Below, piece after piece: positions 29,645-57,564 of a DNA stretch of 64,000 bases (within the stretch, counting starts at the first letter, position 1; each line of letters begins with the position of its first letter). Source of the stretch: Nitrospirota bacterium. Its GTDB lineage: Bacteria > Nitrospirota > Nitrospiria > JACQBZ01. The translations under genes were made by a program, and so were the position numbers. The stretch spans positions 25,320 to 89,319 of the forward strand of contig JACQBZ010000028.1 in NCBI GenBank assembly GCA_016194285.1, written 5' to 3'. Below the pieces are notes generated by a model. The model had not been told where the DNA came from, searched no databases, and saw only the letters and a list, made by a program, of their open reading frames with translations.

Positions 29645-29663
29645 GCCCGCCTCCGCGGTCGTG

Positions 29664-29742
29664 TCTCGAATCAAAATCCTCTCGGATTCTCAAAGGTCGG
29701 TATATTGATTTTTAGTCGGTTTAGGCATATCCTTGTTCCGGA
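29664..29742 (+). repeat. Copy A of a ~75-nt conserved intergenic element (promoter-like: TTGATT-17-TATCCT; small hairpin AATCC.TCTC.GGATT)
   Basis: About 85% identical to 32442-32520. Confidence 0.6.
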
Positions 29743-32360: not shown

Positions 32361-32441
32361 GCCATCGAAACCGTCGACAAGATGACGGATCGTCCAATCG
32401 CGGCCAAAGTTCGTGGGCACTTTCCCACCCCCACGGTTGCC

Positions 32442-32520
32442 TCTCGTTTCAAAATCCTCTCTGATTCTCAAAAGGCGAGATATTGATTTCCAGTAGATTT
32501 AGGCATATCCTTTCGAGGGG
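32442..32520 (+). repeat. Copy B of the ~75-nt conserved intergenic element
   Basis: tctcgtttcaaaatcctctctgattctcaaaaggcgagatattgatttccagtagatttaggcatatcct. Confidence 0.6.
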
Positions 32521-39424: not shown

Positions 39425-39515
39425 CCAAGAAAAACGCAAACCAGTCGAAAGGCTGGGACGCAAAGCTTCAAGGCTTCGCCTTCAGCGATGAAGGCATGCT
39501 AGTTGGGCTGCCCTG
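39425..39515 (+). ncRNA. Probable cyclic-di-GMP-I (GEMM) riboswitch aptamer
   Basis: ACGCAAACCAGUCGAAAGGCUGGGACGCAAAGC matches the GEMM-I core (GCAAACC-stem-GAAA-stem-GGGACGCAAAGCC, cf. Vc2). The compensatory P1 pairs are CCAGUC/GGCUGG. Confidence 0.6.
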
Positions 39516-43905: not shown

Positions 43906-45066
43906 ATGAATAAGAAAGATAAGAAGGATAATAAAAGCATCGCACAATTACGGCGGCTGATCGACAAGCTGGATGAACAGGTCCTGGAACTTCTGAATAA
44001 GCGGGCCAAGATCGTCATGCAGATCGGCAAGCTCAAGAAGGTCAGCCTGTCCGATCTGCATGCCCCCGCGCGCGAAATGGAAATTTACGAACGGCTTTCG
44101 CGTTTGAACAAGGGACCATTTCCGAAGGAGGCCCTCCGCGCCGTCTATCGCGAGATCATCTCGGCCTCGCTCTCTTTGGAGGGCCCGCTCAAAGTGGCCT
44201 ATCTCGGTCCGAAGGCGACCTTCACCCATCTCGCCAGCCAGCGGCAGTTCGGTTTCTCGGCCTCGTATGTTCCGGTGAACAGCATCAAGGATGTCTTCAG
44301 CGAGGTGGAACGGGGGAGGGCCGATTACGGTGTGGTCCCGATCGAAAACTCGACCGAAGGGGTGGTGAATCATACGCTGGACATGTTCGTCGACTCGCCG
44401 TTGAAGATCGTGGGCGAGGTGATGCAGGAGGTGTCGCTCCACCTGATGAACAAGAGCGGAAAGATGGAGGATGTGAAGCATATCTACTCCCATCCGCAGC
44501 CGTTCGCTCAATGCCGGGTCTGGCTGGAGAACCACCTGCCCCATATCCCGACGACGGAGGTCTACAGCACCGCCCGGGCGGCCGAGCTCTGCAACGAAGA
44601 TGCGTCCGCCGCGGCGATCGCCTCCGAGCTGGCGGCCCGGCTGTACGATCTCCAGATCATCCAGCGGCGGATCGAGGACAACATCAACAACTTCACGCGG
44701 TTCCTGATCATCTCGTCCAAGGGTCTCGGCCGGACCGGCCGGGATAAGACCTCGGTCATGTTCACGATCCGCGACCGGGTCGGCGCGCTGCATGACATGC
44801 TGCAACCTTTCTCCCAGCATGGGATCAATCTGACCAAGATCGAATCCCGGCCGTCGAGGAAAAAGGCCTGGGAATATATCTTCTTTGTGGATCTCGAAGG
44901 GCATCAGGACGATGACCGGGTGAGACGCGCGCTGGAGCAGCTCAACGAGCAATGTCTTTTCTTAAAGGTGCTGGGATCTTATCCGGCGGCCAAAGAAAAA
45001 GAACGTGAGCGAGAGGGGGAGGCTCCATCCGGCTTGGCCGGTGGAGGGGGCGACGTGAGCCCCTAA
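43906..45066 (+). CDS. pheA: Bifunctional chorismate mutase / prephenate dehydratase (P-protein) with repeat-encoded C-terminal tail
   Basis: N-terminal CM (LRRLIDKLDEQVLELLNKRAKI), PDT, and ACT (SRPSRKKAWEYIFFVDLEGH). The last ~20 aa (EGEAPSGLAGGGGDVSP) are encoded by a REP-like repeat. Confidence 0.9.
   Translation: MNKKDKKDNKSIAQLRRLIDKLDEQVLELLNKRAKIVMQIGKLKKVSLSDLHAPAREMEIYERLSRLNKGPFPKEALRAVYREIISASLSLEGPLKVAYLGPKATFTHLASQRQFGFSASYVPVNSIKDVFSEVERGRADYGVVPIENSTEGVVNHTLDMFVDSPLKIVGEVMQEVSLHLMNKSGKMEDVKHIYSHPQPFAQCRVWLENHLPHIPTTEVYSTARAAELCNEDASAAAIASELAARLYDLQIIQRRIEDNINNFTRFLIISSKGLGRTGRDKTSVMFTIRDRVGALHDMLQPFSQHGINLTKIESRPSRKKAWEYIFFVDLEGHQDDDRVRRALEQLNEQCLFLKVLGSYPAAKEKEREREGEAPSGLAGGGGDVSP
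45007..45064 (+). repeat. REP-like palindromic repeat copy 1 (inside pheA 3' end)
   Basis: GAGCGAGAGGGGGAGGCTCCATCCGGCTTGGCCGGTGGAGGGGGCGACGTGAGCCCC with an internal hairpin CTCCATCCGGC/GCCGGTGGAG. Confidence 0.7.
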
Positions 45067-45072
45067 AAAAAG

Positions 45073-46079
45073 ATGATCGAGATCGGTAAACATATCGAAG
45101 GAATCGAGCCTTACAAACCGGGCAAGCCGCTGGAAGAATTGGAACGCGAACTCGGGATCAAGGATGCGATCAAACTGGCCTCGAATGAAAACCCGCTCGG
45201 CCCGTCAAAGAAGGCCCTGGCCGTTTTAAAAAAGGGATCGGCCCGGAGCAGGTGATCCTCGGGAACGGTTCGGACGAGATCATGGATCTGGCGGCCAAGA
45301 CTTTTCTGGAGCCGGGCGATGAAGCGATCCTCGGTGATTTGACGTTTGCGATCTATCGCATCAGTGTGACGGCCCATCACGGCGTCGCTGTCCGCGTTCC
45401 GCTTCGGGACGGTTGCTACGACCTGGAGGCGATGGCGCGCCGGTTGACGCCCCTCACCCGTCTGGTCTTCATCTGCAATCCGAACAACCCGACAGGGACG
45501 ATGGTCACCCGGCGGGAGTTGGATCGCTTGTTGAACCACCTGCCCTCCAATGTTCTCGTGGTCATGGACGAGGCCTATGCCGAATACGCCGACGACCCGG
45601 AATTTCCGAACACGATCGAGGACGTGAGGCGGGGCGCGCCGGTCCTGGTTCTCCGGACCTTCTCCAAGATGTACGGCCTGGCCGGTCTCCGGATCGGATA
45701 CGGTCTGTCGACGCCGGAAGTGGTCGAGGCGATGAATCGCGTCCGGCTTCCGTTCAATACCAACAGCCTGGCCCAGTCTGCGGCCCTGGCGGCTTTATCG
45801 GACGAGACCCACGTGGCTCGAAGCCTTCGGGTCAACCGCGAGGGGCGGCGTTACCTGTCCGAATCGTTCAAGGCCCTTGACCTGAGATTTTTTCCGAGCC
45901 AGGCCAACTTTATCTATGTCGATACCGGCCGGAAGGGTGAGGCCGTGTACGAAAAGCTTCTGAGAAAAGGCGTGATCGTCCGTCATATCCAGGGATCGTG
46001 GTTGCGGATTTCGATCGGCCGGCCGGCCGAGAACCGGCGGTTTGTGAAAGCGCTGGCCGACGTCTTGAAAACGAAGTAA
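45073..46079 (+). pseudogene. hisC: Histidinol-phosphate aminotransferase, disrupted (frameshift plus ~20-codon gap) or assembly error
   Basis: ORF 45073..45255 ([21 protein letters not shown]...[11 protein letters not shown]) and ORF 45252..46079 (ILGNGSDEI...) are both HisC-like but in different frames. The frame switches at the A6 run ttaaaaaaggg (~45232). The conserved ~20-aa ..YPDG...LR..LA.. segment between them is missing. Confidence 0.55.
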
Positions 46080-46096
46080 AACTATTTACCAGCTCG

Positions 46097-46188
46097 CAAA
46101 GCGAGCGAGAGGGGGAGGCTCCATCCGGCTTTGCCGGCCTGCATGCTGCGGTTCGCAGCAGACATGTGGAGGGGGCGACGCTAGCCCC
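46097..46188 (+). repeat. REP-like palindromic repeat copy 2 (intergenic, with ~30-bp hairpin insertion)
   Basis: GCGAGCGAGAGGGGGAGGCTCCATCCGGCTTTGCCGG...TGGAGGGGGCGACGCTAGCCCC. Confidence 0.65.
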
Positions 46189-46211
46189 GATCAAATGAGA
46201 AAGGGAGTTCC

Positions 46212-47228
46212 ATGATTATTGTCTTGAAACCGAACGCCACCGAGAAAGAGATCAACCATATTATCGACAAACTGAAAGAGTACGGCCTCAAGCCCCACGT
46301 CTCCCGAGGCGAGGAGCGCGTCATCATCGGAGCGATCGGGGATGAGCGCCAACTGGCCAGTCAGCCGCTGTCCATCTTCCCAGGCGTCGAGAAGGTGATG
46401 CCGATTCTGTCTCCGTACAAGCTGGTCAGCCGCGAATTTAAAAAGGCCGATTCCGTGGTGGAGGTGAACAAGAACGTCAAGATCGGCGGGAAGAAGGTTC
46501 ATGTGATGGCCGGTCCCTGCGCCGTCGAAAAACAGGATCTGCTGATCCATATCGCGCAACAGGTGAAGGAGGCCGGGGCGACGATCCTTCGCGGCGGCGC
46601 CTTCAAGCCGCGGACCTCGCCTTACAGCTTTCAGGGCCTCGAGGAGAAAGGCCTGGAGTTTCTCGTGGAGGCCAGGAAAAAGACCGGGCTTCCGATCGTG
46701 ACCGAGGTGGTGGACCCTCGCGACGTGGCGCTGGTGGCCGAGCATGCCGACATCCTCCAGGTCGGCGCGCGAAACATGCAGAACTTTCGGCTGCTGACCG
46801 AGGTGGGAGCCTATGACAAGCCGGTGCTGCTGAAGCGGGGCCTGTCGGCCACGATCAAGGAGTTCCTGCTCTCGGCCGAGTACATCATGGCGCGGGGCAA
46901 TCATAAGGTGATCCTTTGCGAACGGGGGATCCGGACGTTTGAGACCGCCACCCGAAACACCCTCGATCTGTCCGCAGTACCGGTGATCAAGGGCTTGAGC
47001 CACCTGCCGATCATCGTGGATCCCAGCCATGCGACCGGCCGGTGGGAGCTGGTCGTTCCCCTCGCGCGGGCGGCCGTGGCGGCCGGCGCGGACGGCATCA
47101 TGGTGGAGGTCCATCAAAATCCGGAAGAGGCCCTCTGCGACGGTGAGGAGTCGATCAAGCCGAATAAGTTCAAGACCATGATGGGCGAGATTCGGAAGAT
47201 TGCCGATGCGATTGGCCGCGAAATCTAG
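46212..47228 (+). CDS. 3-deoxy-7-phosphoheptulonate (DAHP) synthase, class I-beta with N-terminal regulatory domain (paralog 2)
   Basis: Same architecture as 27972..28985 (GPCAVEK...[16 protein letters not shown]). Confidence 0.85.
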
Positions 47229-47256
47229 TAAGGGCACGGCGCGCCGTGCCCCTTAT

Positions 47257-48153
47257 ATGATGATGTCCAAAAAACGCTTGTTCCGAAAGATCGTCATCGT
47301 GGGAGTCGGTCTGATCGGCGGGTCCCTCGGGATGGCCGCCCGAAAGAAACGCCTGGCGGACATGATCATCGGTGTAGGACCCCGCGCCGATGAGTTGAGA
47401 CGGGCGGTTGCGCGGAAGGCGGTTGATCGGTACGAAACGGATTTCCGGAAGCTTGAAAAGGCGGTTCATAAAGCGGACCTGGTGATCCTGGCCACACCGG
47501 TGGGACAATTGGAGGCCGTGTCCCGCGAGTTGGCCCCCTGCCTTTCGGAAGGAACCGTCGTCACGGATGTGGGCAGCGTCAAAGGCTACCTGGTCCGTCA
47601 TCTGGAAGAACGGTTTTCCCCCGATCCCTCGAATCGGTCGCCCTTTGTGGGGGGGCATCCGATCGCAGGCCATGAAAAATCCGGCATCGAGGCGGCCTCG
47701 GCGAATCTGTTCACGGGTGCCCTCTGCATTCTGACGCCGACCGACCGCACCTCTCCCGAGGCTTTCAAAAAAGTTCAACGGTTCTGGGAGGCGATCGGGG
47801 TCAAGACCGTTTCGATGGATCCCGACGCGCACGATCGGATCTTGGCCGTTGTGAGCCATCTGCCGCATCTGATCGCGTACGCCCTGGTCAATACCGCTCT
47901 CGAACTTCAGTCCAAGAGCGGCGATCTCCTGTCCTACTCGGCGGGCGGCTTCCGGGATTTCACCCGCGTGGCATCCAGCTCCCCCGAGATGTGGCGGGAC
48001 ATCTGCATGGCCAACCGGGAAAATCTGTTGGCCGTCATCGAGGCCTATGAGAAAACCCTGGACCGATTTAAGCGGCTCTTGGTTGAGGGCCATGCGGAAG
48101 GACTTCGTCGCGAATTTGAACGAGCCAAAACGGCGAAGGAAAAATTCAATTGA
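47257..48153 (+). CDS. tyrA: Prephenate/arogenate dehydrogenase
   Basis: IVIVGVGLIGGSLG Rossmann motif and HPIAGHEKSG. Its stop TGA (48151-48153) lies 1 nt before the aroA ATG. Confidence 0.85.
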   Translation: MMMSKKRLFRKIVIVGVGLIGGSLGMAARKKRLADMIIGVGPRADELRRAVARKAVDRYETDFRKLEKAVHKADLVILATPVGQLEAVSRELAPCLSEGTVVTDVGSVKGYLVRHLEERFSPDPSNRSPFVGGHPIAGHEKSGIEAASANLFTGALCILTPTDRTSPEAFKKVQRFWEAIGVKTVSMDPDAHDRILAVVSHLPHLIAYALVNTALELQSKSGDLLSYSAGGFRDFTRVASSSPEMWRDICMANRENLLAVIEAYEKTLDRFKRLLVEGHAEGLRREFERAKTAKEKFN

Positions 48154-48154
48154 G

Positions 48155-49450
48155 ATGAAATCGGTCGCGGTCAGAAAAAGTCGGGGGATTCGGGGAACGA
48201 TCTCGGCGCCCGGAGATAAATCGATCACCCACCGCGCGATCATCCTGGGCTCGCTCGCGCGCGGGACCACGGTGGTCAACGGATATCTGCCTTCCGAGGA
48301 CTGTCTGCATACCGTCTCGGCCTTCCGTTCGATGGGCATTTCCATCGAAGAAGTCCAAACGGCCGGTGGTCCACTGCGGATCGACGGGAAAGGGCTTCAC
48401 GGCCTTTCCGAACCGTCGGCCGTCTTGGATTTGGGAAATTCCGGCACGGGGCTGAGGCTTCTGACCGGCGTCCTGGCCGGCCAGGATTTTTTTTCGGTCT
48501 TGACCGGAGACGAATCGCTGCGGCGTCGACCCATGCGGCGGGTGGTCGATCCACTCCGGCGGATGGGGGCCGAAATCAACGGTCGGGAGGGTGGAAATTT
48601 GGCGCCGTTGGGCGTTCGGGGACGGCGGCTGAAAGGCATCGCCTATGCTTTACCGGTAGCCAGCGCGCAGGTCAAGTCGGCCCTGCTTCTGGCCGGATTG
48701 CTGGCGGAGGGCCGAACCGTCTTGACCGAACCGCTGCCGTCTCGCGATCATACCGAGCGGATGTTTCGCGGGCTTGGGATTTCCGTTGAGATCAAAGGGG
48801 CGGAACTTTCGCTGGAACCGCCGTCTGAATTTGCCGGCTGTGAAATCGATGTCCCGGGGGATTTCTCATCCGCTGCTTTTTTTATCGTGGCCGCCACGAT
48901 TGTGAAAGATTCGGAGCTGGTGATCCGCCATGTGGGCGTCAATCCCACGCGCACCGGTCTTCTAAATCTGCTTTCCGAAATGGGGGCCGAGATCCGTATC
49001 GAGAACCGCCGCGAGGTCAATCAGGAACCGGTCGCGGATCTGGTGGTGCGGTCGCGGCCGCTCAAGGGGATCCCGATTCGGCCCGAGAGCGTGCCGAAGA
49101 CGATCGATGAATTTCCGATCCTGTGCGTCGCCGCGGCCGTGGCGGAGGGCGAGACCGTCGTCCGGGGCGCGGAAGAGCTTCGCGTGAAGGAAACGGACCG
49201 GATCCAGGCCATCGTCCGCGAGCTTTCCAAACTGGGCGTCGACCTGAAAGAACTTCCGGATGGGCTGGTAATCCGGGGGGGCCGAAAACTTTCGGGGGCC
49301 CGGTGTCTGAGCTACGGCGATCACCGCATCGCAATGGCCCTGGCCATCGCCGGTCTGGTCGCCGAGGGCGAGACCGTGGTGGAAGGGACCGAATGGATCG
49401 AGACCTCCTTTCCCGGCTTCGAACGGCTCCTCCGGTCGGTCGGACAGTAA
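48155..49450 (+). CDS. aroA: 3-phosphoshikimate 1-carboxyvinyltransferase (EPSP synthase)
   Basis: ISAPGDKSITHRAIILGSLA...LGNSGTGLRLL... Confidence 0.92.
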   Translation: MKSVAVRKSRGIRGTISAPGDKSITHRAIILGSLARGTTVVNGYLPSEDCLHTVSAFRSMGISIEEVQTAGGPLRIDGKGLHGLSEPSAVLDLGNSGTGLRLLTGVLAGQDFFSVLTGDESLRRRPMRRVVDPLRRMGAEINGREGGNLAPLGVRGRRLKGIAYALPVASAQVKSALLLAGLLAEGRTVLTEPLPSRDHTERMFRGLGISVEIKGAELSLEPPSEFAGCEIDVPGDFSSAAFFIVAATIVKDSELVIRHVGVNPTRTGLLNLLSEMGAEIRIENRREVNQEPVADLVVRSRPLKGIPIRPESVPKTIDEFPILCVAAAVAEGETVVRGAEELRVKETDRIQAIVRELSKLGVDLKELPDGLVIRGGRKLSGARCLSYGDHRIAMALAIAGLVAEGETVVEGTEWIETSFPGFERLLRSVGQ

Positions 49451-49651
49451 GGACGGGTGCCGAATTATGAGGCTGCTCAAAACGTCCCGGCTGCGAGGCC
49501 GCAGGGCCGAGGCGACCGGAGCGTACGAAACAGGTACGTGAGGATCGCCGAGGGCCGAGAAACCGCACCGCACGGCGACAGCGGCGCGGAATATAATCAA
49601 TCAGCGCCGAAGGCGCGACTTTTCGGTTCGCCGTCTTCGGCAACAAAGCAG

Positions 49652-50356
49652 ATGGGCGTTTTCAGCAGAAACATCATCATCGCGATCGACGGTCCGGCCG
49701 GCTCGGGCAAAAGCAGCGCCGCCCGATTGCTGGCGAAGACGCTGGGCTATCTTTATCTGGACACCGGCGCCCTCTACCGTGCGGTGGGATGGAAGGCGTT
49801 GAAGGAAGGGGTGAGCGTTCAGGATGAAGAGGTCCTCGCAAAGTTATGTTCGCGGCTGAAATTGACGGTCAGGCCCGCCGGTGACGGGATGAAGATCTAT
49901 GTGGACGGACGCGACATCACGGGCGCGATCCGAACGCCGGACGTGAGCCGGGCCGCCGCGGCCGTGGCCGTGGTGGCGGCGGTCCGCCATCGGTTGCTGG
50001 GAATCCAGCGCCGGATGGGGAAAAAAACCGGCGCGCACGGCGGCATCGTGGTGGAGGGTCGCGATATCGGAACGGTGGTGTTTCCTGAAGCAACGGTGAA
50101 GTTCTTCTTGAACGCTTCTCCGGAGGTTCGTGTGAAGCGCCGGTATCAGGAGCTCCGGCAGCAGGGAATGCCGGTCGATCTGACCGTGACCCGGCAAGAG
50201 ATCGACACACGGGACCTGAAAGACTCCAGCCGGGAGATTGCGCCGCTCAAGGTGGCGGAAGACGCGATCCGAATCGACTCGACCGGCTTGACATTGGACG
50301 GCGTGGTTTCGACGATGTTGGAAACGATACAGCAGAAAGCGGGCTTGAAACGATGA
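49652..50356 (+). CDS. cmk: Cytidylate kinase
   Basis: IIIAIDGPAGSGKSSAARLLA...LDTGALYRA. Confidence 0.9.
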   Translation: MGVFSRNIIIAIDGPAGSGKSSAARLLAKTLGYLYLDTGALYRAVGWKALKEGVSVQDEEVLAKLCSRLKLTVRPAGDGMKIYVDGRDITGAIRTPDVSRAAAAVAVVAAVRHRLLGIQRRMGKKTGAHGGIVVEGRDIGTVVFPEATVKFFLNASPEVRVKRRYQELRQQGMPVDLTVTRQEIDTRDLKDSSREIAPLKVAEDAIRIDSTGLTLDGVVSTMLETIQQKAGLKR

Positions 50357-50392
50357 GGGGCCGGTTCTATTGCGGTCCGGTTGATCGTTGAT

Positions 50393-51067
50393 ATGCTGTA
50401 CGCAATCTCCCGTGCGCTTGTGAAAATATTGGGGCGGCTCCTGTTGCGATTGCGAGTGATCGGAGCGGAGCACATCCCCAAAACCGGACCGGCTCTGATC
50501 GCCGCAAATCATGTGAGTTACCTGGATATTCCGCTTCTCGGCGTCATGATCGACCGGCCGCTTCATTTCATGGGGAAGGCCAGTCTGTTTCGCGGTCGTT
50601 GGGTCGGGTGGCTTTATCGGAAACTGAACGGTTTCCCGATTAAAAAAGGGGCCCGCTCACGGGTCGGATTGATGGAGGCCGTCCACCGGCTCAAGCAAGG
50701 CCACTGCGTGGTGATGTATCCGGAGGGTGGTCGAAGCGTCAGCGGTCGGCTCCAGCATCCGATGCCGGGGATCGGGATGATCGTGGCCATGAGCGGGGCG
50801 AAAGTGATTCCGGTCTATGTGGCCGGAACCGACAAGGTGCTCCCGGTGGGCGCCTGGATGATTCGGATCCATCCGGTGACGGTGTTGATCGGCGAACCCC
50901 TCGATTTCACGGAGCAAGTCCGGAAGGAAAACGGGAAGGAACTTTATCTTCAGATCAGCCGCACCGTGATGGAACAGATCATGAAGTTGGAGGCTCAGGC
51001 CACGGGTAAACCGGTGCAAAAGATCGATTCCGTACCGGATGCGGCCGTGAAGGGTGAAAATAATTAA
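50393..51067 (+). CDS. plsC: 1-acyl-sn-glycerol-3-phosphate acyltransferase
   Basis: AANHVSYLDIPLLG (HX4D motif) and YPEGGRS. Confidence 0.85.
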   Translation: MLYAISRALVKILGRLLLRLRVIGAEHIPKTGPALIAANHVSYLDIPLLGVMIDRPLHFMGKASLFRGRWVGWLYRKLNGFPIKKGARSRVGLMEAVHRLKQGHCVVMYPEGGRSVSGRLQHPMPGIGMIVAMSGAKVIPVYVAGTDKVLPVGAWMIRIHPVTVLIGEPLDFTEQVRKENGKELYLQISRTVMEQIMKLEAQATGKPVQKIDSVPDAAVKGENN

Positions 51068-51174
51068 AGTAGTGACAAATCATGAAAAAGTATAGTACAA
51101 TGCGCATTCAGTTTTTCTAGGAAACAAATTATAATCCAATCGAACGGATCGAACGGAAAGGGGACACAGACAGC

Positions 51175-52830
51175 ATGACGTTTTCGGAAGACGCACCGAT
51201 CACCAACACGGCAGGGGCGCCCAATGAAGAGCTCCCGATGAATATGCACGCCCTCTATGAGGAGTCGTTCAAGAATTTAAAGGAAGGAGGGGTCGTCGAG
51301 GGGACGGTGGTTGCCATCCAACAGGCCGGCGTGGTGGTGGATATCGGTTACAAATCCGAGGGACTGATCCCCGCCAGTGAGTTCAGCTCGACCGAGATCG
51401 CGGCCCTGAAGGTCGGGGAACAGATCCAGGTTTATCTGGAGGAGCGTGAGGACAACGAGGGGAACCTCATTCTTTCCAAGGAGAAGGCGGCCAAGATGAA
51501 GGTCTGGGAAGTCTTGGAGAAGTCCTTCGAAAAAGAAGAGGTCGTCGAGGGCAAGATGGTCTCAAAAGTCAAGGGCGGGATGATGGTGGATATCGGGGTC
51601 AAGGCCTTCCTGCCGGGTTCGCAGATCGACCTTCATCCGGTCCGGGACCTAGATTCCCTGATCGGCAAAACCTTTCCGATGAAGATTATCAAGATGAACC
51701 ACCGCCGGGGCAACATCGTTGTGTCCCGTCGCGTGCTGTTGGAGGAGTCCCGAGACAAGAAACGCCGAGCCGCCATGGCGACGCTGGAAGACGGGCAGCT
51801 CATCGATGGGATGGTCAAGAACATTACGGAGTACGGGGCTTTTATTGATCTGGGCGGGATCGACGGTCTGCTCCATATCACGGACATGTCCTGGGGGCGC
51901 GTGAACCATCCCTCCGAGATTTTGTCGGTGGGCGACCGGATCGGTGTGGTCGTCCTTAAATATGACAAAGAAACCGGCCGCGTTTCTCTGGGACTCAAGC
52001 AAAAGACGCCGGATCCCTGGGGACGGGTGGAGGAGAAATACCCCGTCGGGACTCGGGTCAAAGGGAAAATCGTGAGCATCACGGATTACGGAGCCTTTGT
52101 GGAGCTTGAGGCCGGCATCGAGGGCCTGGTTCATATCTCGGAGATGTCCTGGAGTCACGAGGTCCGCCATCCTTCCAAACTGGTTTCGGTCGGGGACCAT
52201 GTGGAGGTGGTTGTCCTGATGGTGGACCGGGAGAACCGCAAGATCTCGCTGGGCATGAAGCAGGTGACGCCGAATCCGTGGAGCGCGGTCGAGGGCAAAT
52301 ATCCGGTCGGGAGCCGGATCACCGGCAAGATCAAGGGACTGACCGACTTCGGCGCGTTTGTGGGACTGGAGGAAGGGATCGACGGGCTGATCCATATTTC
52401 GGACATGTCCTGGACCAAACGTCTTACCCATCCCTCCGAGTTGTTCAAAAAAGGTCAGCCGGTCGAGGCGGTGGTTCTCAAAGTGGACAAAGAAAAAGAG
52501 CGCCTGTCGCTCGGCTACAAGCAGCTTCAATCCGACCCGTGGGAGACCGGTATCGCCGAGAAATACCATGTCGGCGATGTGGTGAAGTGCCGGATCGTCA
52601 AGGTGACGGATTTTGGCGTCTTCGTCGAGCTGGAGGACGGAGTCGAAGGGCTGATCCATGTCAGTGAAACGGGCATCGAACCGTCTTCCCGAATCAGCGA
52701 TGCCATGCAGGTCAATGATGTCATTCGAGCCCAGATCATCAAGATGGACCTTACGGAACGCAAGATTGCTTTGAGCATCAAGGCCTATAAGAGCGAGCAG
52801 GAACGCGCCCAGAAAAAGGATAAGAAGTAA
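51175..52830 (+). CDS. rpsA: 30S ribosomal protein S1
   Basis: Six tandem S1 domains; 551 aa. Confidence 0.95.
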   Translation: MTFSEDAPITNTAGAPNEELPMNMHALYEESFKNLKEGGVVEGTVVAIQQAGVVVDIGYKSEGLIPASEFSSTEIAALKVGEQIQVYLEEREDNEGNLILSKEKAAKMKVWEVLEKSFEKEEVVEGKMVSKVKGGMMVDIGVKAFLPGSQIDLHPVRDLDSLIGKTFPMKIIKMNHRRGNIVVSRRVLLEESRDKKRRAAMATLEDGQLIDGMVKNITEYGAFIDLGGIDGLLHITDMSWGRVNHPSEILSVGDRIGVVVLKYDKETGRVSLGLKQKTPDPWGRVEEKYPVGTRVKGKIVSITDYGAFVELEAGIEGLVHISEMSWSHEVRHPSKLVSVGDHVEVVVLMVDRENRKISLGMKQVTPNPWSAVEGKYPVGSRITGKIKGLTDFGAFVGLEEGIDGLIHISDMSWTKRLTHPSELFKKGQPVEAVVLKVDKEKERLSLGYKQLQSDPWETGIAEKYHVGDVVKCRIVKVTDFGVFVELEDGVEGLIHVSETGIEPSSRISDAMQVNDVIRAQIIKMDLTERKIALSIKAYKSEQERAQKKDKK

Positions 52831-52835
52831 AAACG

Positions 52836-53726
52836 GTGCAGGTGATGAAAAGGCATCCGTTGATCGTCGGCTTGGTTCTGTTGGCCGTCCTGGCCGTCCT
52901 TTTCTTTTTTGTGACCTATTCCGCCACCCTCATGCAGGCCGGCGGCGGCTTCCTTGAAGACCGGATCGCCCTGGTCAAAATCGAGGGCGTCATCCTCGAT
53001 TCTTCCGACACGATCGAAGAACTCCGTCGATACCATAACAGCTCCGGGATCAAGGCCATCATCCTCCGGATCAACAGCCCCGGCGGCGGGGTCGTTCCCT
53101 CGCAGGAAATCTACGAAGAAGTGAAAAAAATCCGCGAGGAAGGCCAAAAGAAAGTGGTGGTTTCGATGGGGACGGTCGCGGCTTCCGGGGGGTATTACAT
53201 CGCCAGCGCCTCGAACCGAATCGTGGCCAATCCGGGCACGCTGACGGGGAGCATCGGCGTGATCATGGAGTTGGCCAATGTGGAGGGGTTGTTTAAGAAG
53301 ATCGGCGTGGAGAGCGTCGTGATCAAGAGCGGGCGGAACAAGGACATCGGCTCTCCCTTCCGCAAGATGAAGCCGGAGGAGCGGGCGATTCTGCAACGCT
53401 TGATGGACGATGTCCATGACCAGTTTATCCAGGCGGTGGCCGAGGGACGGGGGTTGGCGGAAGATCGGGTTCGCGAGATGGCGGACGGAAGCGTCTTCAC
53501 CGGACGGCAGGCCAAAGAGCTCGGGCTGGTGGATGACATTGGAGATCTTCAGGATACCATCCGCGTCACGGCCGATCTGGTCGGAATCAAAGGGGAGCCC
53601 CGGATCGTGGAGTCCCGAAAACGGGTCTCGATATTGGATCTGTTCCGGGACCAGTTCCTGGGCCGGTTGCCCAGCATGCAACTGCCCCAGGCCGGCGTTT
53701 CAATGAAATATCTTCTGGTGTTTTAA
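52836..53726 (+). CDS. sppA: Signal peptide peptidase SppA (36K type)
   Basis: N-terminal TM segment, then ...GTVAASGGYYIASA... ClpP/crotonase fold with Ser protease motif. Confidence 0.85.
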   Translation: MQVMKRHPLIVGLVLLAVLAVLFFFVTYSATLMQAGGGFLEDRIALVKIEGVILDSSDTIEELRRYHNSSGIKAIILRINSPGGGVVPSQEIYEEVKKIREEGQKKVVVSMGTVAASGGYYIASASNRIVANPGTLTGSIGVIMELANVEGLFKKIGVESVVIKSGRNKDIGSPFRKMKPEERAILQRLMDDVHDQFIQAVAEGRGLAEDRVREMADGSVFTGRQAKELGLVDDIGDLQDTIRVTADLVGIKGEPRIVESRKRVSILDLFRDQFLGRLPSMQLPQAGVSMKYLLVF

Positions 53727-53765
53727 ATTGATCCTTGTCCAAGTTTATTCACGAGGAGAGCAGAG

Positions 53766-54044
53766 ATGACCAAAGCTCAGTTGATCGAAACGATGTCCCA
53801 GAAAGTGACCCACCTCACGAAACGTCAGACCGAGATGATCGTCAACACGATCTTCAACAGCATACGGCAGTCGCTGGCCAACGGGGACAAGATCGAGATC
53901 CGCGGCTTCGGGAGCTTTAAGCTCCGCCAACGGCGCATGCGGGAAGGCCGGAATCCCAAGACCGGCACCCAGGTCCATGTCCCGGCCAAGCGCGTGCCGT
54001 TCTTCAAGGCCGGAAAAGAACTGAAAGAGATTGTAAATAGTTAA
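53766..54044 (+). CDS. ihfB: Integration host factor beta subunit / HU-family DNA-binding protein
   Basis: EIRGFGSFKLRQRR.R.GRNPKTG is the IHF/HU signature. Length 92 aa. Confidence 0.85.
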   Translation: MTKAQLIETMSQKVTHLTKRQTEMIVNTIFNSIRQSLANGDKIEIRGFGSFKLRQRRMREGRNPKTGTQVHVPAKRVPFFKAGKELKEIVNS

Positions 54045-54619
54045 TCAAACCGGCAGGAAAGCGAGAGCGCTTTTTCAAGCCGATGGATGTATTCCCGACG
54101 GGAGATTTCGACCGCGCCGAAGCGCTTCAAGTGCGTCGTCGTGAACTGGACGTCGAACAACCGATAGCCCCGCTCCTTCAATCGGTTCAGGAGAAACACC
54201 AGGCAGACTTTTGAAGCATCGCGCACAATCGTAAACATCGATTCGCCCATGAACGCCCCGCCCAGGCTCACGCCATAAATCCCGCCCGCCAGTTTCCCTT
54301 CGTGATAGGCTTCGACCGAGTGGGCTTTGCCCAGACGATGCATCGCCGTGTAGGCGGCCATGATCTCCCCGCTGATCCAGGTCTCCTCTCGATTCGCACA
54401 GCCTCGTATGACCCCGTCAAAATCGCGGTTGACGGTGATTTCAAACTTCGGCCGACGGATCGTCCGGCCCAAACGCCGAGGGATGTGGGACCGTTCCAGA
54501 TCGATGATCGTCCGCGGATCGGGCGAGTACCAATGAATCCGTCCATCCTCATCCGCCATCGGAAAGATACCTCGGCGGTAGGCTTCTTCAAGCAGTTCGG
54601 GCGGGATGGCCTGGGACAT
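54041..54619 (-). CDS. aat: Leucyl/phenylalanyl-tRNA--protein transferase
   Basis: YRRGIFPMADEDGRIHWYSPDPR... Confidence 0.9.
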   Translation of the reverse strand: MSQAIPPELLEEAYRRGIFPMADEDGRIHWYSPDPRTIIDLERSHIPRRLGRTIRRPKFEITVNRDFDGVIRGCANREETWISGEIMAAYTAMHRLGKAHSVEAYHEGKLAGGIYGVSLGGAFMGESMFTIVRDASKVCLVFLLNRLKERGYRLFDVQFTTTHLKRFGAVEISRREYIHRLEKALSLSCRFD

Positions 54620-54622
54620 GAA

Positions 54623-56008
54623 TCACGCCGCCTTCAGCGCGCCGATCAGATCGAGAATCGCCTTCTTCCCGTCGGCGAAGTACATCAACGTGTTGTCGGC
54701 GGCGAACAGGGGATTGGGAATCCCGGCGAAACCGGGACTCAAGCTGCGCTTGATCACGACCACCGTCCTGGCCTTATCCACATTCAGGATCGGCATGCCG
54801 GCGATCGGACTCGACGGATCGGTCCGCGCCACCGGGTTGACCACGTCATTGGCGCCGATCACCAGCGCGACGTCGGTCTGCTCGAACGCGGGGTTGATCT
54901 CGTCCATCTCTTTGAGTTTATCGTAGGGGATGTCGGCCTCGGCCAGCAGCACGTTCATATGGCCAGGCATCCGTCCGGCGACGGGATGAATCGCGAACGC
55001 CACCTCCGCGCCGCGACTTTCCAGCAAAATGGCGAGGTCGCGGACGGCATGCTGGGCCTGGGAGACGGCCATCCCGTATCCGGGAACGATCACAACGCGA
55101 CGGGCCGTGTCCAGCAACGAGGCGATCTCTTCGGCCGTGGCCGCTTTCACCTTTCCTCCGTAAACCTGGTCGGCCGTCGGGCCGACGGCCGGCGCGATAC
55201 CCATCCCGCCGAACAGAACGTTGGCGAGCGACCGGTTCATCGCCTTGCACATTAAAATAGACAGCACGAAACCGGAGGCCCCGTCCAGCGTGCCGGCGAT
55301 GATGAGAATGGTGTTCGAGATCACAAATCCGGTGGCCGCGGCCGCCAAACCGGCATAGGAATTCAGCAGAGAAATGACCACCGGCATGTCCGCCGCGCCG
55401 ATCGGCAGGACCAAGAGGATTCCGAATACGAGGCCCAGACCCACCAAGAGATAGAACAGAGGGCCCGCGGCCGGGACGGCGATGAGGTAGAACCAGATCC
55501 CCAACAGGAAGGCGAAGAGCGCGACGTTCGAGGTGTTTTGACCCCGGTAGGTGATCAGCGACCCGGTGATCAGTTCCTGGAGCTTGGAAAACGCCATCAG
55601 GCTTCCGGTGACCGTCAGGGCTCCCATCATGACTTCAAAACCGATCGCGGTCATCTTGATCGGGCCGAGTTCCGATCCGTGCCGATGGTACTCGGATATT
55701 CCGACGAGGGTCACAGCCAGGGCCCCAAAGGCATGGGACAGGGCGGTTCGCTGCGGCATGGCGGTCATCGGCGTCCAGAGCGCGATTCCGACCCCGATCA
55801 TGGACCCGATCACCATTCCGGTGATGATCCATTGATAGCGGATGATCTCGTGATGGAAAAGCGTCCCCACAATCGCCAGGGCCATCCCGATCTCGGCCAG
55901 GAACATCCCGCGTCGGGCGGTCCTCGCGGAGTTCAGATCTTTAAGCCCCAGGATGAACAGGATCGAAGCGACCAGATAGGCCCATTGGATGAAGGCGCTT
56001 GCGGTCAT
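54623..56008 (-). CDS. pntB: NAD(P) transhydrogenase subunit beta
   Basis: 461 aa with an N-terminal TM domain and a C-terminal NADP(H)-binding dIII (VPGYGMAV...GANDVVNP). Confidence 0.92.
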   Translation of the reverse strand: MTASAFIQWAYLVASILFILGLKDLNSARTARRGMFLAEIGMALAIVGTLFHHEIIRYQWIITGMVIGSMIGVGIALWTPMTAMPQRTALSHAFGALAVTLVGISEYHRHGSELGPIKMTAIGFEVMMGALTVTGSLMAFSKLQELITGSLITYRGQNTSNVALFAFLLGIWFYLIAVPAAGPLFYLLVGLGLVFGILLVLPIGAADMPVVISLLNSYAGLAAAATGFVISNTILIIAGTLDGASGFVLSILMCKAMNRSLANVLFGGMGIAPAVGPTADQVYGGKVKAATAEEIASLLDTARRVVIVPGYGMAVSQAQHAVRDLAILLESRGAEVAFAIHPVAGRMPGHMNVLLAEADIPYDKLKEMDEINPAFEQTDVALVIGANDVVNPVARTDPSSPIAGMPILNVDKARTVVVIKRSLSPGFAGIPNPLFAADNTLMYFADGKKAILDLIGALKAA

Positions 56009-56295
56009 CGCCGGTTTTTATCCTTCTTGAACATCTTCAGTATCCGGTCGGTGATGAGGAACCCTCCCACGACATTCGTCATGGCCGAGACCACCGCGAT
56101 GAATCCCAGGATGGTACTCACGGTGCCATAGTCGGACCCTGCGGTGACCAGCGCGCCCACCACCGAGATCGCGGAGATGGCATTGGTGGCGGACATGAGC
56201 GGCGTGTGGAGCAGCGGCGGGACCCGTGAGATCACCTGATAGCCCACAAAGGCGGCCAGCACGAAGATCGTGAGTAATGCGATCGAAATATCCAT
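56005..56295 (-). CDS. pntA: NAD(P) transhydrogenase alpha subunit part 2 (membrane dII segment)
   Basis: 96-aa hydrophobic protein between pntAA and pntB. Confidence 0.85.
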   Translation of the reverse strand: MDISIALLTIFVLAAFVGYQVISRVPPLLHTPLMSATNAISAISVVGALVTAGSDYGTVSTILGFIAVVSAMTNVVGGFLITDRILKMFKKDKNRR

Positions 56296-56313
56296 CAGCG
56301 TTCCTTTCTATTT

Positions 56314-57564
56314 TTAGGGGCTAGCGTCGCCCCCTCCACCGGCAGAGCCGGATGGAGCCTCCCCCTCTCGCTCGCTTCCGCTCGCTGGGTGACCACCGCC
56401 GGCCAATGCGGCCGTCGGTCCCAAAAGCTCCCGAACCCGTGAGTGCACCACCTCCCCGTTCCGGGCCACGAGCGTTTCGCGGATGATGGCGTCCTGTGCG
56501 TCAAGACGAAGCTGGCCTTCCTTCACGATGTGGGTCAGAAACGCCGAGATATTTTTGGCGTACAGCTGGCTGGCGTGATAGGGAACCGTTGCGGCGAGGC
56601 GGACCGGTCCGATAATCGTCACGCGGTGGGCCGTAACGGTCCGGCCGGGCTGCGTCAATTCGCAATTGCCCCCGTTCTCGGCGGCCAGATCGATGATCAC
56701 CGAGCCGGGGGCCATGCCGGATACCATCGCCCCGGTTAGCAGCACCGGCGATCGTTTGCCGGGAATCGCCGCGGTGCAAATGACCACATCGCTTCCGGCC
56801 ACGACGCGGGCCATGGTCTCGCGCTGCCGACGGTAAAACGATTCATCCATAGCCTTGGCATAACCGCCTTCGGACTCCGTGCCGGAAGTGTCCAGGGACA
56901 GCTCCACGAACTTCGCCCCCACGCTCTGAACCTGCTCTTTGACGGCGGGGCGAACATCGTACGCCTGCACGACCGCACCCAGCCGGCGCGCGGTCGCGAT
57001 CGCCTGCAGCCCCGCCACCCCGGCGCCGATCACGAAGGCGCGGGCCGGGTTGACGGTTCCGGCGGCCGTCATCAACATCGGAAACATTCGGGGCAGCGCC
57101 TCGGCCGCGAGCAGCACCGCTTTGTATCCGGCGATGGTCGCCATCGAACTCAAGACGTCCATGCTCTGCGCCCGGGTGATTCGGGGCAGGAGTTCCAGGG
57201 CGAACACGACGGCGCGCCGTTCGGCCAGATCTTTTACGGCCTTGGGAGAGGAAAGCGGATCCTGCAATCCAATAAGGATCTGGTCGGGGCGTACGTGGTT
57301 GAGGTCGGCGCGGCCGGCCTCCGGGTTGGCTCCGAGGCCGAGGACTTGGAGAATGATATCGGCCGAGCGGAATAAGTCGGTGCGTCCCGCGATGATCTGT
57401 GCACCTTTTTCTTGGTAGGCCACGTCCAAAAAGCCGGCCGCCTCGCCGGCCCCGACCTCAATCGAGATTTGGAGCCCGGCTTTGATGAGGGCGGCCGCGA
57501 CGGCGGGAACAAGGGCGACACGCCGCTCGCCCGGAAAGGTTTCTTTGGGGACTCCGATGATCAT
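56314..57564 (-). CDS. pntA: NAD(P) transhydrogenase alpha subunit part 1 (alanine dehydrogenase/PNT domain) with repeat-encoded C-terminal tail
   Basis: MIIGVPKETFPGERRVALVP...GAGVAGLQAI. The C-terminal ...EREGEAPSGSAGGGGDASP is encoded by REP-like repeat copy 3. Confidence 0.85.
   Translation of the reverse strand: MIIGVPKETFPGERRVALVPAVAAALIKAGLQISIEVGAGEAAGFLDVAYQEKGAQIIAGRTDLFRSADIILQVLGLGANPEAGRADLNHVRPDQILIGLQDPLSSPKAVKDLAERRAVVFALELLPRITRAQSMDVLSSMATIAGYKAVLLAAEALPRMFPMLMTAAGTVNPARAFVIGAGVAGLQAIATARRLGAVVQAYDVRPAVKEQVQSVGAKFVELSLDTSGTESEGGYAKAMDESFYRRQRETMARVVAGSDVVICTAAIPGKRSPVLLTGAMVSGMAPGSVIIDLAAENGGNCELTQPGRTVTAHRVTIIGPVRLAATVPYHASQLYAKNISAFLTHIVKEGQLRLDAQDAIIRETLVARNGEVVHSRVRELLGPTAALAGGGHPASGSEREGEAPSGSAGGGGDASP
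56317..56378 (-). repeat. REP-like palindromic repeat copy 3 (inside pntAA 3' end)
   Basis: The reverse complement reads GCGAGCGAGAGGGGGAGGCTCCATCCGGCTCTGCCGGTGGAGGGGGCGACGCTAGCCCC-TAA. Confidence 0.7.

Follow-up and report, generated by a model that had tools for sequence, protein, structure and literature searches.

The three repeats found in the 64-kb window (the whole stretch of DNA that was analysed) are probably copies of a multi-copy, non-coding mobile element, strand-asymmetric and hairpin-forming, that is best placed among RPE- or REP-like structured repeats. The family to which they belong is apparently a large, undescribed one of Nitrospirota and syntrophic deltaproteobacterial (Desulfobacterota) genomes, and the Gly-rich tails that the window's pheA and pntAA products share are by-products of having the element at the end of a gene.

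The conserved halves of the element co-occur exactly three times in the window (45007-45063 and 46103-46188 on the plus strand, 56317-56373 on the minus strand) where none is expected by chance (0 in 100 dinucleotide-preserving shuffles of the window), and a covariance model run without filters found no fourth copy in the 64 kb. The initial annotation was right about these three copies, about the hairpin (CTCCA-T-CCGGC/GCCGG-TGGAG) and its flanking G runs, about the reversed third copy, about an extra hairpin of some 30 bp in the second, and about the intergenic position of that second copy behind hisC. The repeat is longer than the 57-60 nt it was given, continuing for about 25-45 nt more on the 5′ side (CCCAGCGAGC...) and 9 nt more on the 3′ side (TAAAAATAG). 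Copy 2 lies between a hisC-like gene (stop 46077-46079) and a DAHP synthase gene (ATG 46212), and the closest relative, L001, has an orthologous copy at the same junction. The 29-mer nested in copy 2 is also present in one other copy (L064), at a different position, and nowhere else among the 117 loci examined.

Table 1. Positions of the element copies, their parts and the two genes carrying element-encoded tails.
Feature	Position	Strand	Remark
pheA (chorismate mutase / prephenate dehydratase / ACT), with element-encoded tail	43906-45066	+	Pfam
Junction of 33-nt in-frame deletion relative to L001	45001-45002	+	
Copy 1, 5′-truncated	45002-45072	+	covariance model 89.9 bits
Copy 1, remnant of 5′ part	45002-45014	+	
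Copy 1, G run and AGG	45015-45022	+	
Copy 1, hairpin P1	45023-45046	+	
Copy 1, hairpin P2	45047-45063	+	
Copy 1, tail TAAAAAAAG	45064-45072	+	
Copy 2, intergenic	46086-46197	+	covariance model 57.2 bits
Copy 2, hairpin P0 (GCTCGC-AAA-GCGAGC)	46092-46106	+	
Copy 2, G run	46111-46118	+	
Copy 2, P1	46119-46171	+	
Copy 2, nested 29-nt mini-hairpin CCTGCATGCTGCGGTTCGCAGCAGACATG in P1	46138-46166	+	missing from L001 copy 2
Copy 2, P2	46172-46188	+	
Copy 2, tail	46189-46197	+	
Copy 3	56308-56389	-	covariance model 89.2 bits
Copy 3, 5′ part CCCAGCGAGCGGAAGCGAGCGAGAG	56365-56389	-	
Copy 3, G run/AGG	56358-56364	-	
Copy 3, P1	56334-56357	-	
Copy 3, P2	56317-56333	-	
Copy 3, tail TAAAAATAG	56308-56316	-	
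pntAA (transhydrogenase alpha, 416 aa from MIIGVPKE), with element-encoded tail	56314-57564	-	Pfam

In pheA and pntAA the element has the same orientation and the same frame relative to the gene, with the stop TAA directly after it, all as first described. The last 20 codons of pheA are copy 1 (C-terminus ...EREREGEAPSGLAGGGGDVSP), whose TAA at 45064-45066 is the pheA stop, and the last ~25 codons of pntAA are copy 3 (C-terminus ...SEREGEAPSGSAGGGGDASP), which lies on the pntAA sense strand; pntAB starts 12 nt downstream (ATG at 56295). The PntAA protein is a 100% match to an NCBI protein annotated as “MAG: Nitrospirae bacterium”. The proposal that the element remodels gene termini holds, but for pheA the route was not insertion. 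In L001, which is 95% identical, the element is intergenic and sits behind pheA’s own stop; outgroup PheA proteins end in KEKGNE or KGKGHE, and the pheA-hisC junction that is filled in L001 and the window is without the element in L002. Relative to L001, a 33-nt deletion took the native ...GNE-TAG end of pheA along with the 5′ part of the element (CCCAGCGAAC), and because it removed the native stop, pheA was fused to a pre-existing intergenic copy at this later point. This fusion is seen in a single MAG assembly, the next gene of which also has a 73-nt frameshifting gap.

The pntAA tail goes back to an old insertion of the element 12-15 nt ahead of the gene’s own stop and to a subsequent TAT-to-TAA change. 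The site is empty in L116 and L117 and filled in L004, L005, L006 and the window, and empty and filled alleles show no target duplication beyond a possible TAG. Reading continues through the element to the native stop in L004 and ends right after the element in L005 and the window, while in L006 a 1-nt indel puts the stop ahead of the element with nothing else changed. Between lineages the element at pntAA shares 97% identity, against only 70-77% for the pntAA coding DNA on its flank, which shows concerted evolution or strong constraint; in L006, P1 has been swapped wholesale. Because the insertion is old, the tail is common to pntAA orthologues at 85-89% identity. The initial annotation’s suggestion that a tail shared by orthologues in distant taxa would indicate a conserved peptide does not apply as it was worded. 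Most pheA and pntAA orthologues, the more distant ones included, are without the tail, making it lineage-specific.

The common reading frame of the two tails is not a coincidence, as the bias runs across the family: 11 of the 12 long ORFs that enter the element use one frame, and all three frames are open in >80% of copies. The dominant frame encodes an acidic/Gly/Ser/Pro peptide (EREGEAPSGxAGGGGDASP), and two internal in-frame insertions were found, in queG and in the activation domain of metH. This bias, together with the retention of the tail in three pntAA lineages, is what could be said for a genuine conserved C-terminal peptide, e.g., a sorting or degradation signal, an explanation that we consider almost certainly wrong. 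It is contradicted by the tailless orthologues, by the different stops used in L004, L005, L006 and the window, and by the intergenic location of most copies. A search with the peptide matched only hypothetical ORFs of 32-90 aa, with no Pfam domain and no recognised protein family.

Read 5′ to 3′ on the G-rich strand, the element is ~85-130 nt long and opens with an optional long hairpin (GTAGATACCCACG...CGTGGGTATCTAC, the 5′ GTAG hairpin), followed by the small hairpin P0, GAGAG or TTGAG, GGGGAGG, P1, P2 (GGAGGGGGC-GAYGNNA-GCCCC, i.e., GGGGC-GAYGNNA-GCCCC) and a 9-nt 3′ tail, TNTAAWWG(C/A). At least six copies have the long form with its GTAG...CTAC hairpin; the conserved core carries no GTAG tag, and has a GC content of ~65% against 44-61% in the hosts. 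P0 comes as 14 different complementary stems, four of them within one MAG, and is non-pairing in 53 copies, with GCGAGC-AAA-GCGAGC in most Nitrospirota copies. P1 is built on a conserved CUCC(A)/(U)GGAG base and has a freely covarying inner stem of 5-6 bp, a 3-5-nt loop and, in most cases, a single bulged nucleotide; it also tolerates nested insertions. Nearly all of its 77 distinct sequences form hairpins: 98.7% of cells are paired and seven pairs (71 cells) have both partners changed, as high a level being reached in 0 of 500 shuffles and slid controls giving 46-59% pairing. Covariation is limited to this inner helix and the joining strands are invariant, though the invariance of the G-rich segments is partly by construction because the scan pattern fixed them, which variants found by the model offset only partly. 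There are 39 G·U pairs versus three A·C mismatches, and therefore the G-rich strand is the folding strand.

Searching beyond the window, as had been proposed, gave more than 130 copies in more than 30 MAGs, mainly of Nitrospirota, Syntrophus and Syntrophorhabdus. Several MAGs have at least 9-16 copies each; the taxon labels are the MAG submitters’ own and single-contig matches (Ignavibacteriales) could be mis-binned. The pattern scan of genomes contributed at least 125 copies in at least 108 stretches, and the covariance model at least 132 in 775 kb, 27 of them missing the scan pattern. Presence and absence differ between close relatives, in keeping with the dispersed repeat first suspected. 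Copies are single or in tandem in the same orientation and sit at gene ends and at operon junctions, immediately ahead of the next gene’s ribosome-binding site, many ending 8-30 nt before the start codon. Within co-directional gene pairs the G-rich strand is sense in 54 of 61 copies and antisense in seven, counts that are based on crude ORF calling.

The family also includes tandem arrays, truncated copies (5′ in 6-8 versus 3′ in 1-2, a small sample) and one nested insert. The right boundary is fixed, at 9-13 nt past P2, and the left boundary varies; many copies, though not all, have a TAG just ahead of the left junction, and ATAG or ATTG is found ≤12 nt after P2 in 67 of 121. Direct repeats of host sequence, 17-90 nt long, flank ~12% of copies and include the 3′ halves of tRNA-Gln and tRNA-Ser as well as gene 3′ ends, and in one 90-nt pair the differences are mostly at third codon positions. 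In some cases (L010, L095) such a flanking repeat is in fact a tandem array or the start of a paralogous gene. No gene family is enriched among neighbours of the copies, and ~800 kb of flanks (~8 kb around each copy) yielded no transposase, no RAYT and no other gene that recurs beside the copies; an approximate IS200 TnpA probe gave spurious matches only.

Rickettsia palindromic elements (RPE; Ogata et al. 2000) are reportedly hairpin repeats of ~100-150 bp that lie between genes and in-frame within or at the ends of housekeeping genes, add a tolerated peptide and differ in presence among relatives. The element is similarly small, hairpin-forming, present or absent among relatives and placed both between genes and in-frame at the end of (pheA, pntAA and others) or inside (queG, metH) housekeeping genes. 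It differs in having no apparent sequence kinship with RPE, in occurring in Nitrospirota and Desulfobacterota rather than one genus, in its strand asymmetry and sense-strand bias, and in its covarying helix between invariant G runs. IS200/IS605 palindrome-associated elements, for which IS608 supplies the features compared, are alike in their strand asymmetry, hairpins near both ends, bulged base and absence of terminal inverted repeats, and here too there is no duplication at pntAA and NTAG occurs in many copies at the left flank and right end. Unlike them, the element has no tnpA/tnpB partner among its neighbours, and long host duplications would not be expected; repeats of 17-90 nt at ~12% of copies with none at pntAA are unpredicted by either IS200/IS605 or classical MITE transposition. 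Correia/NEMIS, ERIC and bcr1 are MITE-type intergenic repeats that are transcribed and, through hairpins in the RNA, affect how mRNA is processed or how stable it is, with compensatory changes in bcr1. They carry terminal inverted repeats and short target duplications of fixed length, and the element has neither.

RPE and elements of the Correia/NEMIS, ERIC and bcr1 types are among those listed in PMC3733652, according to which GTAG REPs supply TAG stops, can lie inside ORFs and are found mostly between unidirectional or convergent genes. Like REP/BIME/REPIN sequences (PMC3733652), of which the GTAG-tagged REPs are mobilised by RAYT (HUH Y1) transposases, the element is high-copy, mostly extragenic between unidirectional or convergent genes, sometimes within ORFs and plausibly transcribed, with a boundary TAG that can serve as a neighbour’s stop and, in the long form, a GTAG...CTAC hairpin at its start. 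Its core is nevertheless 2-3 times longer and near-identical across phyla, and no RAYT was found beside any copy in the ~8 kb around it, where REP families are species- or genus-specific. The simple REP/BIME/Correia-type palindrome first envisaged is not what we find, given the lack of terminal inverted repeats and inverted doublets, the strong strand asymmetry, the RNA-like covariation and the spread across phyla.

Other classes were also set aside. The 15-30 bp terminal inverted repeats of a MITE were not found, the 5′ ends (TTACCCAGCG, AGAAAACCAGCG) being by eye not complementary to ...GCCCCTATAATAG when ends are set by empty/filled alleles and flanking repeats, nor was a fixed-length target duplication (none at pntAA beyond the possible TAG, 17 to ~90 nt elsewhere). 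The inverted copy pairs of REPINs and BIMEs are missing. As an integron attC site the element would have RYYYAAC and GTTRRRY core sites at its two ends, but the 125 copies inspected have no AAC/GTT boxes and end in ...CCAGCG (5′) and TNTAAWWG (3′) and sit in housekeeping operons. An intrinsic terminator would have a U run, and the tail is A-rich in the sense direction (TATAATAG, TAAAAAAAG). Rfam 15 had no match in the window at the gathering score, and none at E ≤ 10 over the window copies or eight loci with full-length copies, twister P1/P3/P5, twister-sister, pistol, hatchet, HDV-like and hammerhead ribozymes included; UGGAGGGGGCG may resemble a plant twister sequence, which we treat as a lead only.

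It seems unlikely that the element is mainly a functional cis-acting RNA module held by selection, with its spread secondary. Such a module might process or stabilise mRNA between cistrons, use two GGAGG motifs and its A/U-rich tail for ribosome standby or translational coupling, or form a small core resembling a ribozyme or riboswitch with a peripheral helix that varies, and it would fit the confined covariation, the excess of G·U pairs, the sense bias, the short distance to the next start codon, the conservation of the element at pntAA relative to neighbouring coding DNA and the same core in several phyla and across host GC contents. However, the copies have no gene-family association, empty alleles are viable in close relatives, and copies inside the queG and metH ORFs would be unfolded by ribosomes. 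Tandem arrays, truncated copies, the many non-pairing P0 stems and the Rfam result also argue against it.

Two further explanations involve a single-stranded intermediate with one fixed end. We hold it to be distinctly unlikely that the copies represent a structured single-stranded module that spreads horizontally, either as RNA reconverted into DNA or as a rolling-circle strand, in effect a SINE-like or one-ended element of bacteria. Its 3′ end (...UAAUAG) would be fixed and perhaps self-processed, and its 5′ end variable; integration would target gene and tRNA 3′ ends and leave duplications of variable, sometimes considerable length, and the invariant G-rich core would be a catalytic or enzyme-recruiting RNA. 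Highly unlikely, in our opinion, is a one-ended or retro-type mobile element with an RNA/cDNA or rolling-circle intermediate (3′ end ...TAATAG), joined on the left by homology or microhomology and on the right illegitimately, which would leave variable and sometimes long duplications of the target’s 3′ end. The fixed right and variable left ends, the predominance of 5′ truncation and the long flanking repeats with tRNA 3′ halves and gene 3′ ends are consistent with it, as is co-orientation with upstream genes, from which it follows that the element is co-transcribed. On the other hand, no reverse transcriptase or HUH gene was found in the flanks of the copies, pntAA, the sole site with true empty alleles, has no duplication, an empty allele sought for a long-repeat copy was not found, the sample of truncated copies is small, and some of the repeats have the more ordinary origins given above.

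For the RPE/REP-like mobile repeat that we favour, the window would record an old insertion at pntAA with a later change of stop, a secondary deletion at pheA, and a copy 2 that stayed intergenic and gained its mini-hairpin. Movement may proceed via a single-stranded intermediate recognised by its structure. The candidate mobiliser would be an HUH-type enzyme like those of IS200/IS605 or REP-RAYT systems, with cutting proposed after NTAG; a TAG is often found just ahead of the left junction, and the element finishes in ATAG or ATTG. When copies are transcribed as part of operons, the stable P1 and P2 hairpins with the A/U-rich tail probably act as an mRNA 3′-end protector or processing site, and antisense insertions may be selected against. 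Counting against this reading, besides the absence of a recurrent neighbour gene from the flanks searched, some 40 nt are nearly identical from phylum to phylum, which is uncommon in a selfish repeat and suits a functional RNA better, and target duplication is without a fixed length.

Near base-for-base conservation across phyla and in hosts of 44-61% GC, a covarying helix and a sense-strand bias together mean that the element is either a highly successful selfish element or an unrecognised RNA module, and either outcome extends the catalogue of bacterial non-coding elements in little-studied groundwater and syntrophic lineages. It also explains artefacts of MAG annotation, namely dozens of “hypothetical proteins” of 30-90 aa and odd Gly-rich C-terminal tails; a mis-called start is seen in L001, where that of hisC falls inside the element. 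Finally, the family is an RPE-like case outside Rickettsia, with repeat DNA tolerated in-frame in QueG, MetH, PntAA and PheA, and since this tolerance comes with a clear frame preference, which peptides proteins tolerate becomes testable.

The two conserved halves of the element match the window at exactly three places, where dinucleotide-preserving shuffles predict no chance copies, and a covariance model run without filters found no fourth copy in the 64 kb. The three copies of the initial annotation are therefore upheld, as are the opposite orientation of the last, the hairpin and G runs, and the intergenic position of copy 2 with its extra insertion, which measures 29 nt. pheA and pntAA, both confirmed by Pfam, do end in an identical element-encoded peptide, read in one frame and closed by a TAA immediately 3′ of the element. 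The proposal that a mobile repeat has remodelled gene termini was largely right, with two amendments: the pheA tail appears to stem from a deletion, and ‘simple palindrome’ does not describe the element. Elsewhere in the window we noted a c-di-GMP-I riboswitch aptamer (69.7 bits; gathering score 35) and an 89-nt repeat with 81% identity between copies 2778 nt apart.

Copies of the element, neighbouring genes and other features (window positions unless a locus from another genome is named)
Feature	Sequence	Position	Strand	Remark
Copy 1	window	45007–45063	+	at pheA end
Copy 2	window	46103–46188	+	intergenic, between hisC-like gene and DAHP synthase gene
Copy 3	window	56317–56373	−	at pntAA end
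29-nt mini-hairpin	window	46138–46166		inside P1 of copy 2
29-nt mini-hairpin	L064	6426–6445 region		between P0 and G run
pheA	window	43906–45066	+	Pfam
Putative 33-nt deletion	window	45001/45002		junction
hisC-like aminotransferase gene	window	45073–46079		two frames, 45073–45255 and 45252–46079
73 nt absent	window	~45243		relative to L001
hisC start as called	L001	3428		GTG inside element
pntAA	window	56314–57564	−	Pfam
~572-aa paralogues	window	58168–59886; 61776–63480		3608 nt apart
c-di-GMP-I aptamer	window	39425–39515	+	
89-nt repeat	window	29646–29734; 32424–32512		
Head-to-tail array	L087	4731–5060		period 88 nt
Head-to-tail array	L089	1809–1953		period 79 nt
Head-to-tail array	L107	1121–1260		period 89 nt
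Head-to-tail array	L010	6780–7114		period 193 nt
Copy downstream of intact tRNA-Gln (CTG)	L074	6290–6532		same orientation as tRNA
Copy downstream of intact tRNA-Ser (TGA)	L079	6556–6761		same orientation as tRNA

We scanned one genome per species with the pattern GGGGAGG-N19–48-TGGAGGGGGCGAYGNNAGCCCC, which returned at least 108 stretches. A covariance model found at least 132 copies in 775 kb; the scan pattern itself fixed the conserved segments, and 27 of the 132 copies depart from it (e.g., GGGGUGG, GGGAAGG, GGGGA/UCCCC in the 3′ G/C hairpin, P2, or a shorter P2 loop). Going by the labels of MAG submitters, carriers among the matches listed are Nitrospirota, Syntrophus, Syntrophaceae, Syntrophorhabdales and ‘delta proteobacterium’ MAGs, one ‘Patescibacteria group’ MAG (three contigs), one Pseudomonadota MAG (two contigs) and one Ignavibacteriales contig. 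Several MAGs hold at least 9–16 copies each within the small fraction of the genome sampled, and the core stays at ~65% GC regardless of a host GC of 44–61%. No Rfam family matched the window or full-length copies, at the gathering score or at E ≤ 10, and full-text keyword and conserved-string searches found no published description of the element, the string returning only unrelated G-quadruplex papers.

The element extends 5′ beyond the 57 nt first outlined, with CCCAGCGAGC... and a small hairpin (P0), and 3′ by a 9-nt tail (consensus TNTAAWWG); at least six copies also have a long hairpin without mismatches, GTAGATACCCACG-loop-CGTGGGTATCTAC. About a third of copies form P0 as a true hairpin, and its stem takes 14 different sequences; in 53 copies, mostly from Nitrospirota, its place is taken by a non-pairing GCGAGC-AAA-GCGAGC. 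For the variable hairpin, P1, there are 77 sequence variants; almost every one folds into a hairpin with CUCC(A)/(U)GGAG as its closing base, and the inner stems include CCGGC/GCCGG, CGGGC/GCCCG, CAGGC/GCCUG, UCCGCC/GGCGGA and GUGAC/GUCAC, and some variants have additional hairpins inserted. On the model-fitted alignment 98.7% of cells are paired, and seven pairs show changes at both positions (71 cells), a covariation that none of 500 shuffles reached; slid controls paired at 46–59%. Little variation is seen in P2 or in the outer pairs of P1, which are therefore uninformative in this respect. Folding is strand-specific: since G·U-type pairs outnumber A·C-type mismatches by 39 to 3, the G-rich strand is the one that folds, as RNA or as top-strand ssDNA. 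The 29-nt mini-hairpin in copy 2, CCTGCATGCTGCGRTTCGCAGCAGACATG, occurs at a different position in one other copy (L064) and nowhere else in the 117 loci searched; it could represent a very small nested insertion, either mobile or templated.

The family is dispersed and polymorphic for insertion, as at pntAA. Empty alleles (L116 and L117) read ...GATCG/AAAGGAGA..TGATGG, and filled ones (L004, L005, L006 and the window) hold ~85 nt between the same points. The ORF end varies among the filled alleles: in L004 it continues past the element as far as the native stop (...DASPYKKET), in L005 and the window it stops at the TAA immediately 3′ of the element, and in L006 a 1-nt indel brings a TAG just 5′ of it. 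Judging by this variation, the tail peptide is dispensable though the DNA is kept. The element at this site is 97% identical between lineages, against 70–77% for the adjacent pntAA coding DNA, and in L006 the entire inner P1 has been swapped for a variant frequent in other genomes, the flanks being unaltered; together these mean that the element is strongly constrained, that gene conversion acts among copies, or both. The element evolves in a concerted or constrained manner. Tandem arrays (periods 79–193 nt), truncated copies and a nested insert also occur, and the units of the L087 array are joined within P2 (AGCCC/AGCG), as if by recombination between the 3′ GCCCC and the 5′ CCCAGCG of the element. 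Upstream of pntAA, two paralogous genes (70–85% nucleotide identity) are GGDEF/EAL response-regulator genes by synteny with annotated relatives.

At pheA, comparison of the window, which comes from a MAG of the class Nitrospiria (Nitrospirota), with its relatives gives a different history. In the closest pheA relative, L001 (95% amino-acid identity), the element occupies both of the corresponding junctions and is intergenic in each; its pheA ends ...KEKGNE-TAG, followed by AAAAAGACGAAG and the full element. More distant orthologues also end in KEKGNE or KGKGHE, and a relative at 87% identity has an 18-nt spacer without the element instead. Because L001 and the distant orthologues keep these ends, the window pheA is best read as a derived, in-frame deletion of 33 nt, which would have taken the pheA stop and the 5′ end of the element and fused pheA to a copy already present. 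This fusion is seen in one assembly only. The neighbouring hisC-like gene is frameshifted by the 73 nt it lacks relative to L001, which makes it a pseudogene or else reflects an error in MAG assembly; since the pheA deletion adjoins this gap, read-level confirmation of the stretch is advisable.

A typical copy occupies an entire intergenic spacer, ending 8–30 nt before the next start codon. Insertion is biased to the sense orientation: among 61 co-directional gene pairs, as defined by crude ORF calls, the G-rich strand is sense in 54. Replication-linked gene-strand bias in such phyla is generally modest, and a bias as strong as the one observed speaks for a constraint tied to transcription rather than to replication alone. 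Of twelve ORFs that enter the element after 150 codons or more, 11 do so in the frame used in the window, even though more than 80% of copies have no stop in any of the three frames; the favoured frame gives a bland acidic/Gly/Ser/Pro segment and the other two would be Arg-, Cys- and Trp-rich. Two in-frame insertions are internal, one between the Fe-S motifs of QueG and the other inside the MetH activation domain. Such tolerance within ORFs is shared with Rickettsia RPEs and intragenic GTAG REPs, for which this behaviour has been described (PMC3733652). A peptide search with a doubled query matched only ‘hypothetical proteins’ of 32–90 aa, none with a Pfam domain; dozens of these in Nitrospirota MAGs are the element translated. 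In L001 the public gene call was likewise misled, starting hisC inside the element.

Several other identities were considered. Against a gene-specific regulator, neighbouring genes are heterogeneous and their proteins do not cluster save for artefacts of the translated element, and all-against-all clustering of 697 flanking ORFs gave housekeeping families only. A similarity to a twister ribozyme strand was set aside for want of an Rfam match. The TATAAT tail is unlikely to be a promoter, as it has no −35 box within usable range and is replaced by TAATTG in the deltaproteobacterial subtype; a terminator would need a U run, and there is none. Neither attC core sites, nor the adenine-specific flanking-repeat differences of a DGR, nor CRISPR spacer arrays were found.

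As for mobility, the element may move as a single strand recognised by its structure, with HUH chemistry (IS200/IS605, REP-RAYT-like) as a candidate, since it has no inverted terminal repeats, has a bulged hairpin, left no duplication at pntAA, and has TAG at many left junctions and ATAG or ATTG on the right. A search of the flanks gave no enzyme for movement: the flanking ORFs include no transposase, an IS200 TnpA probe was negative, and ORFs between two convergent copies in L069 neither resemble that probe nor belong to any recurrent neighbour family. About 12% of copies lie between long direct repeats (17 to ~90 nt) of host DNA, whereas controls pairing one copy’s upstream flank with another’s downstream flank never exceeded 10 nt. 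Some of these repeats consist of the closing codons of upstream genes; others are tRNA parts, namely the 3′ half of tRNA-Gln and the 3′ end of tRNA-Ser, and in these two cases the duplicated tRNA part follows the copy (47 nt in L074, 19 nt in L079). A tRNA gene with a duplicated 3′ part is the layout typical of integrase-mediated islands, but here the duplications enclose only ~115–170 bp. Metagenome scans for an empty allele of a long-repeat insertion returned only the identical filled one. The right-hand repeat always starts 9–13 nt past P2, the left end is variable, and 5′-truncated copies are commoner than 3′-truncated ones, a pattern suggestive of an intermediate whose 3′ end is fixed (one-ended, rolling-circle or cDNA-like).

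Taken together, the element belongs with small structured repeats of the REP/RPE kind. It is set apart from them by sequence conservation across phyla, covariation like that of RNA, a bias to the sense strand, a tolerance in proteins that favours one frame, and long flanking duplications. If REP, BIME and Correia elements are a guide, two stacked stable hairpins with an A/U-rich tail in operons would be expected to protect the upstream mRNA or mark a site of processing.
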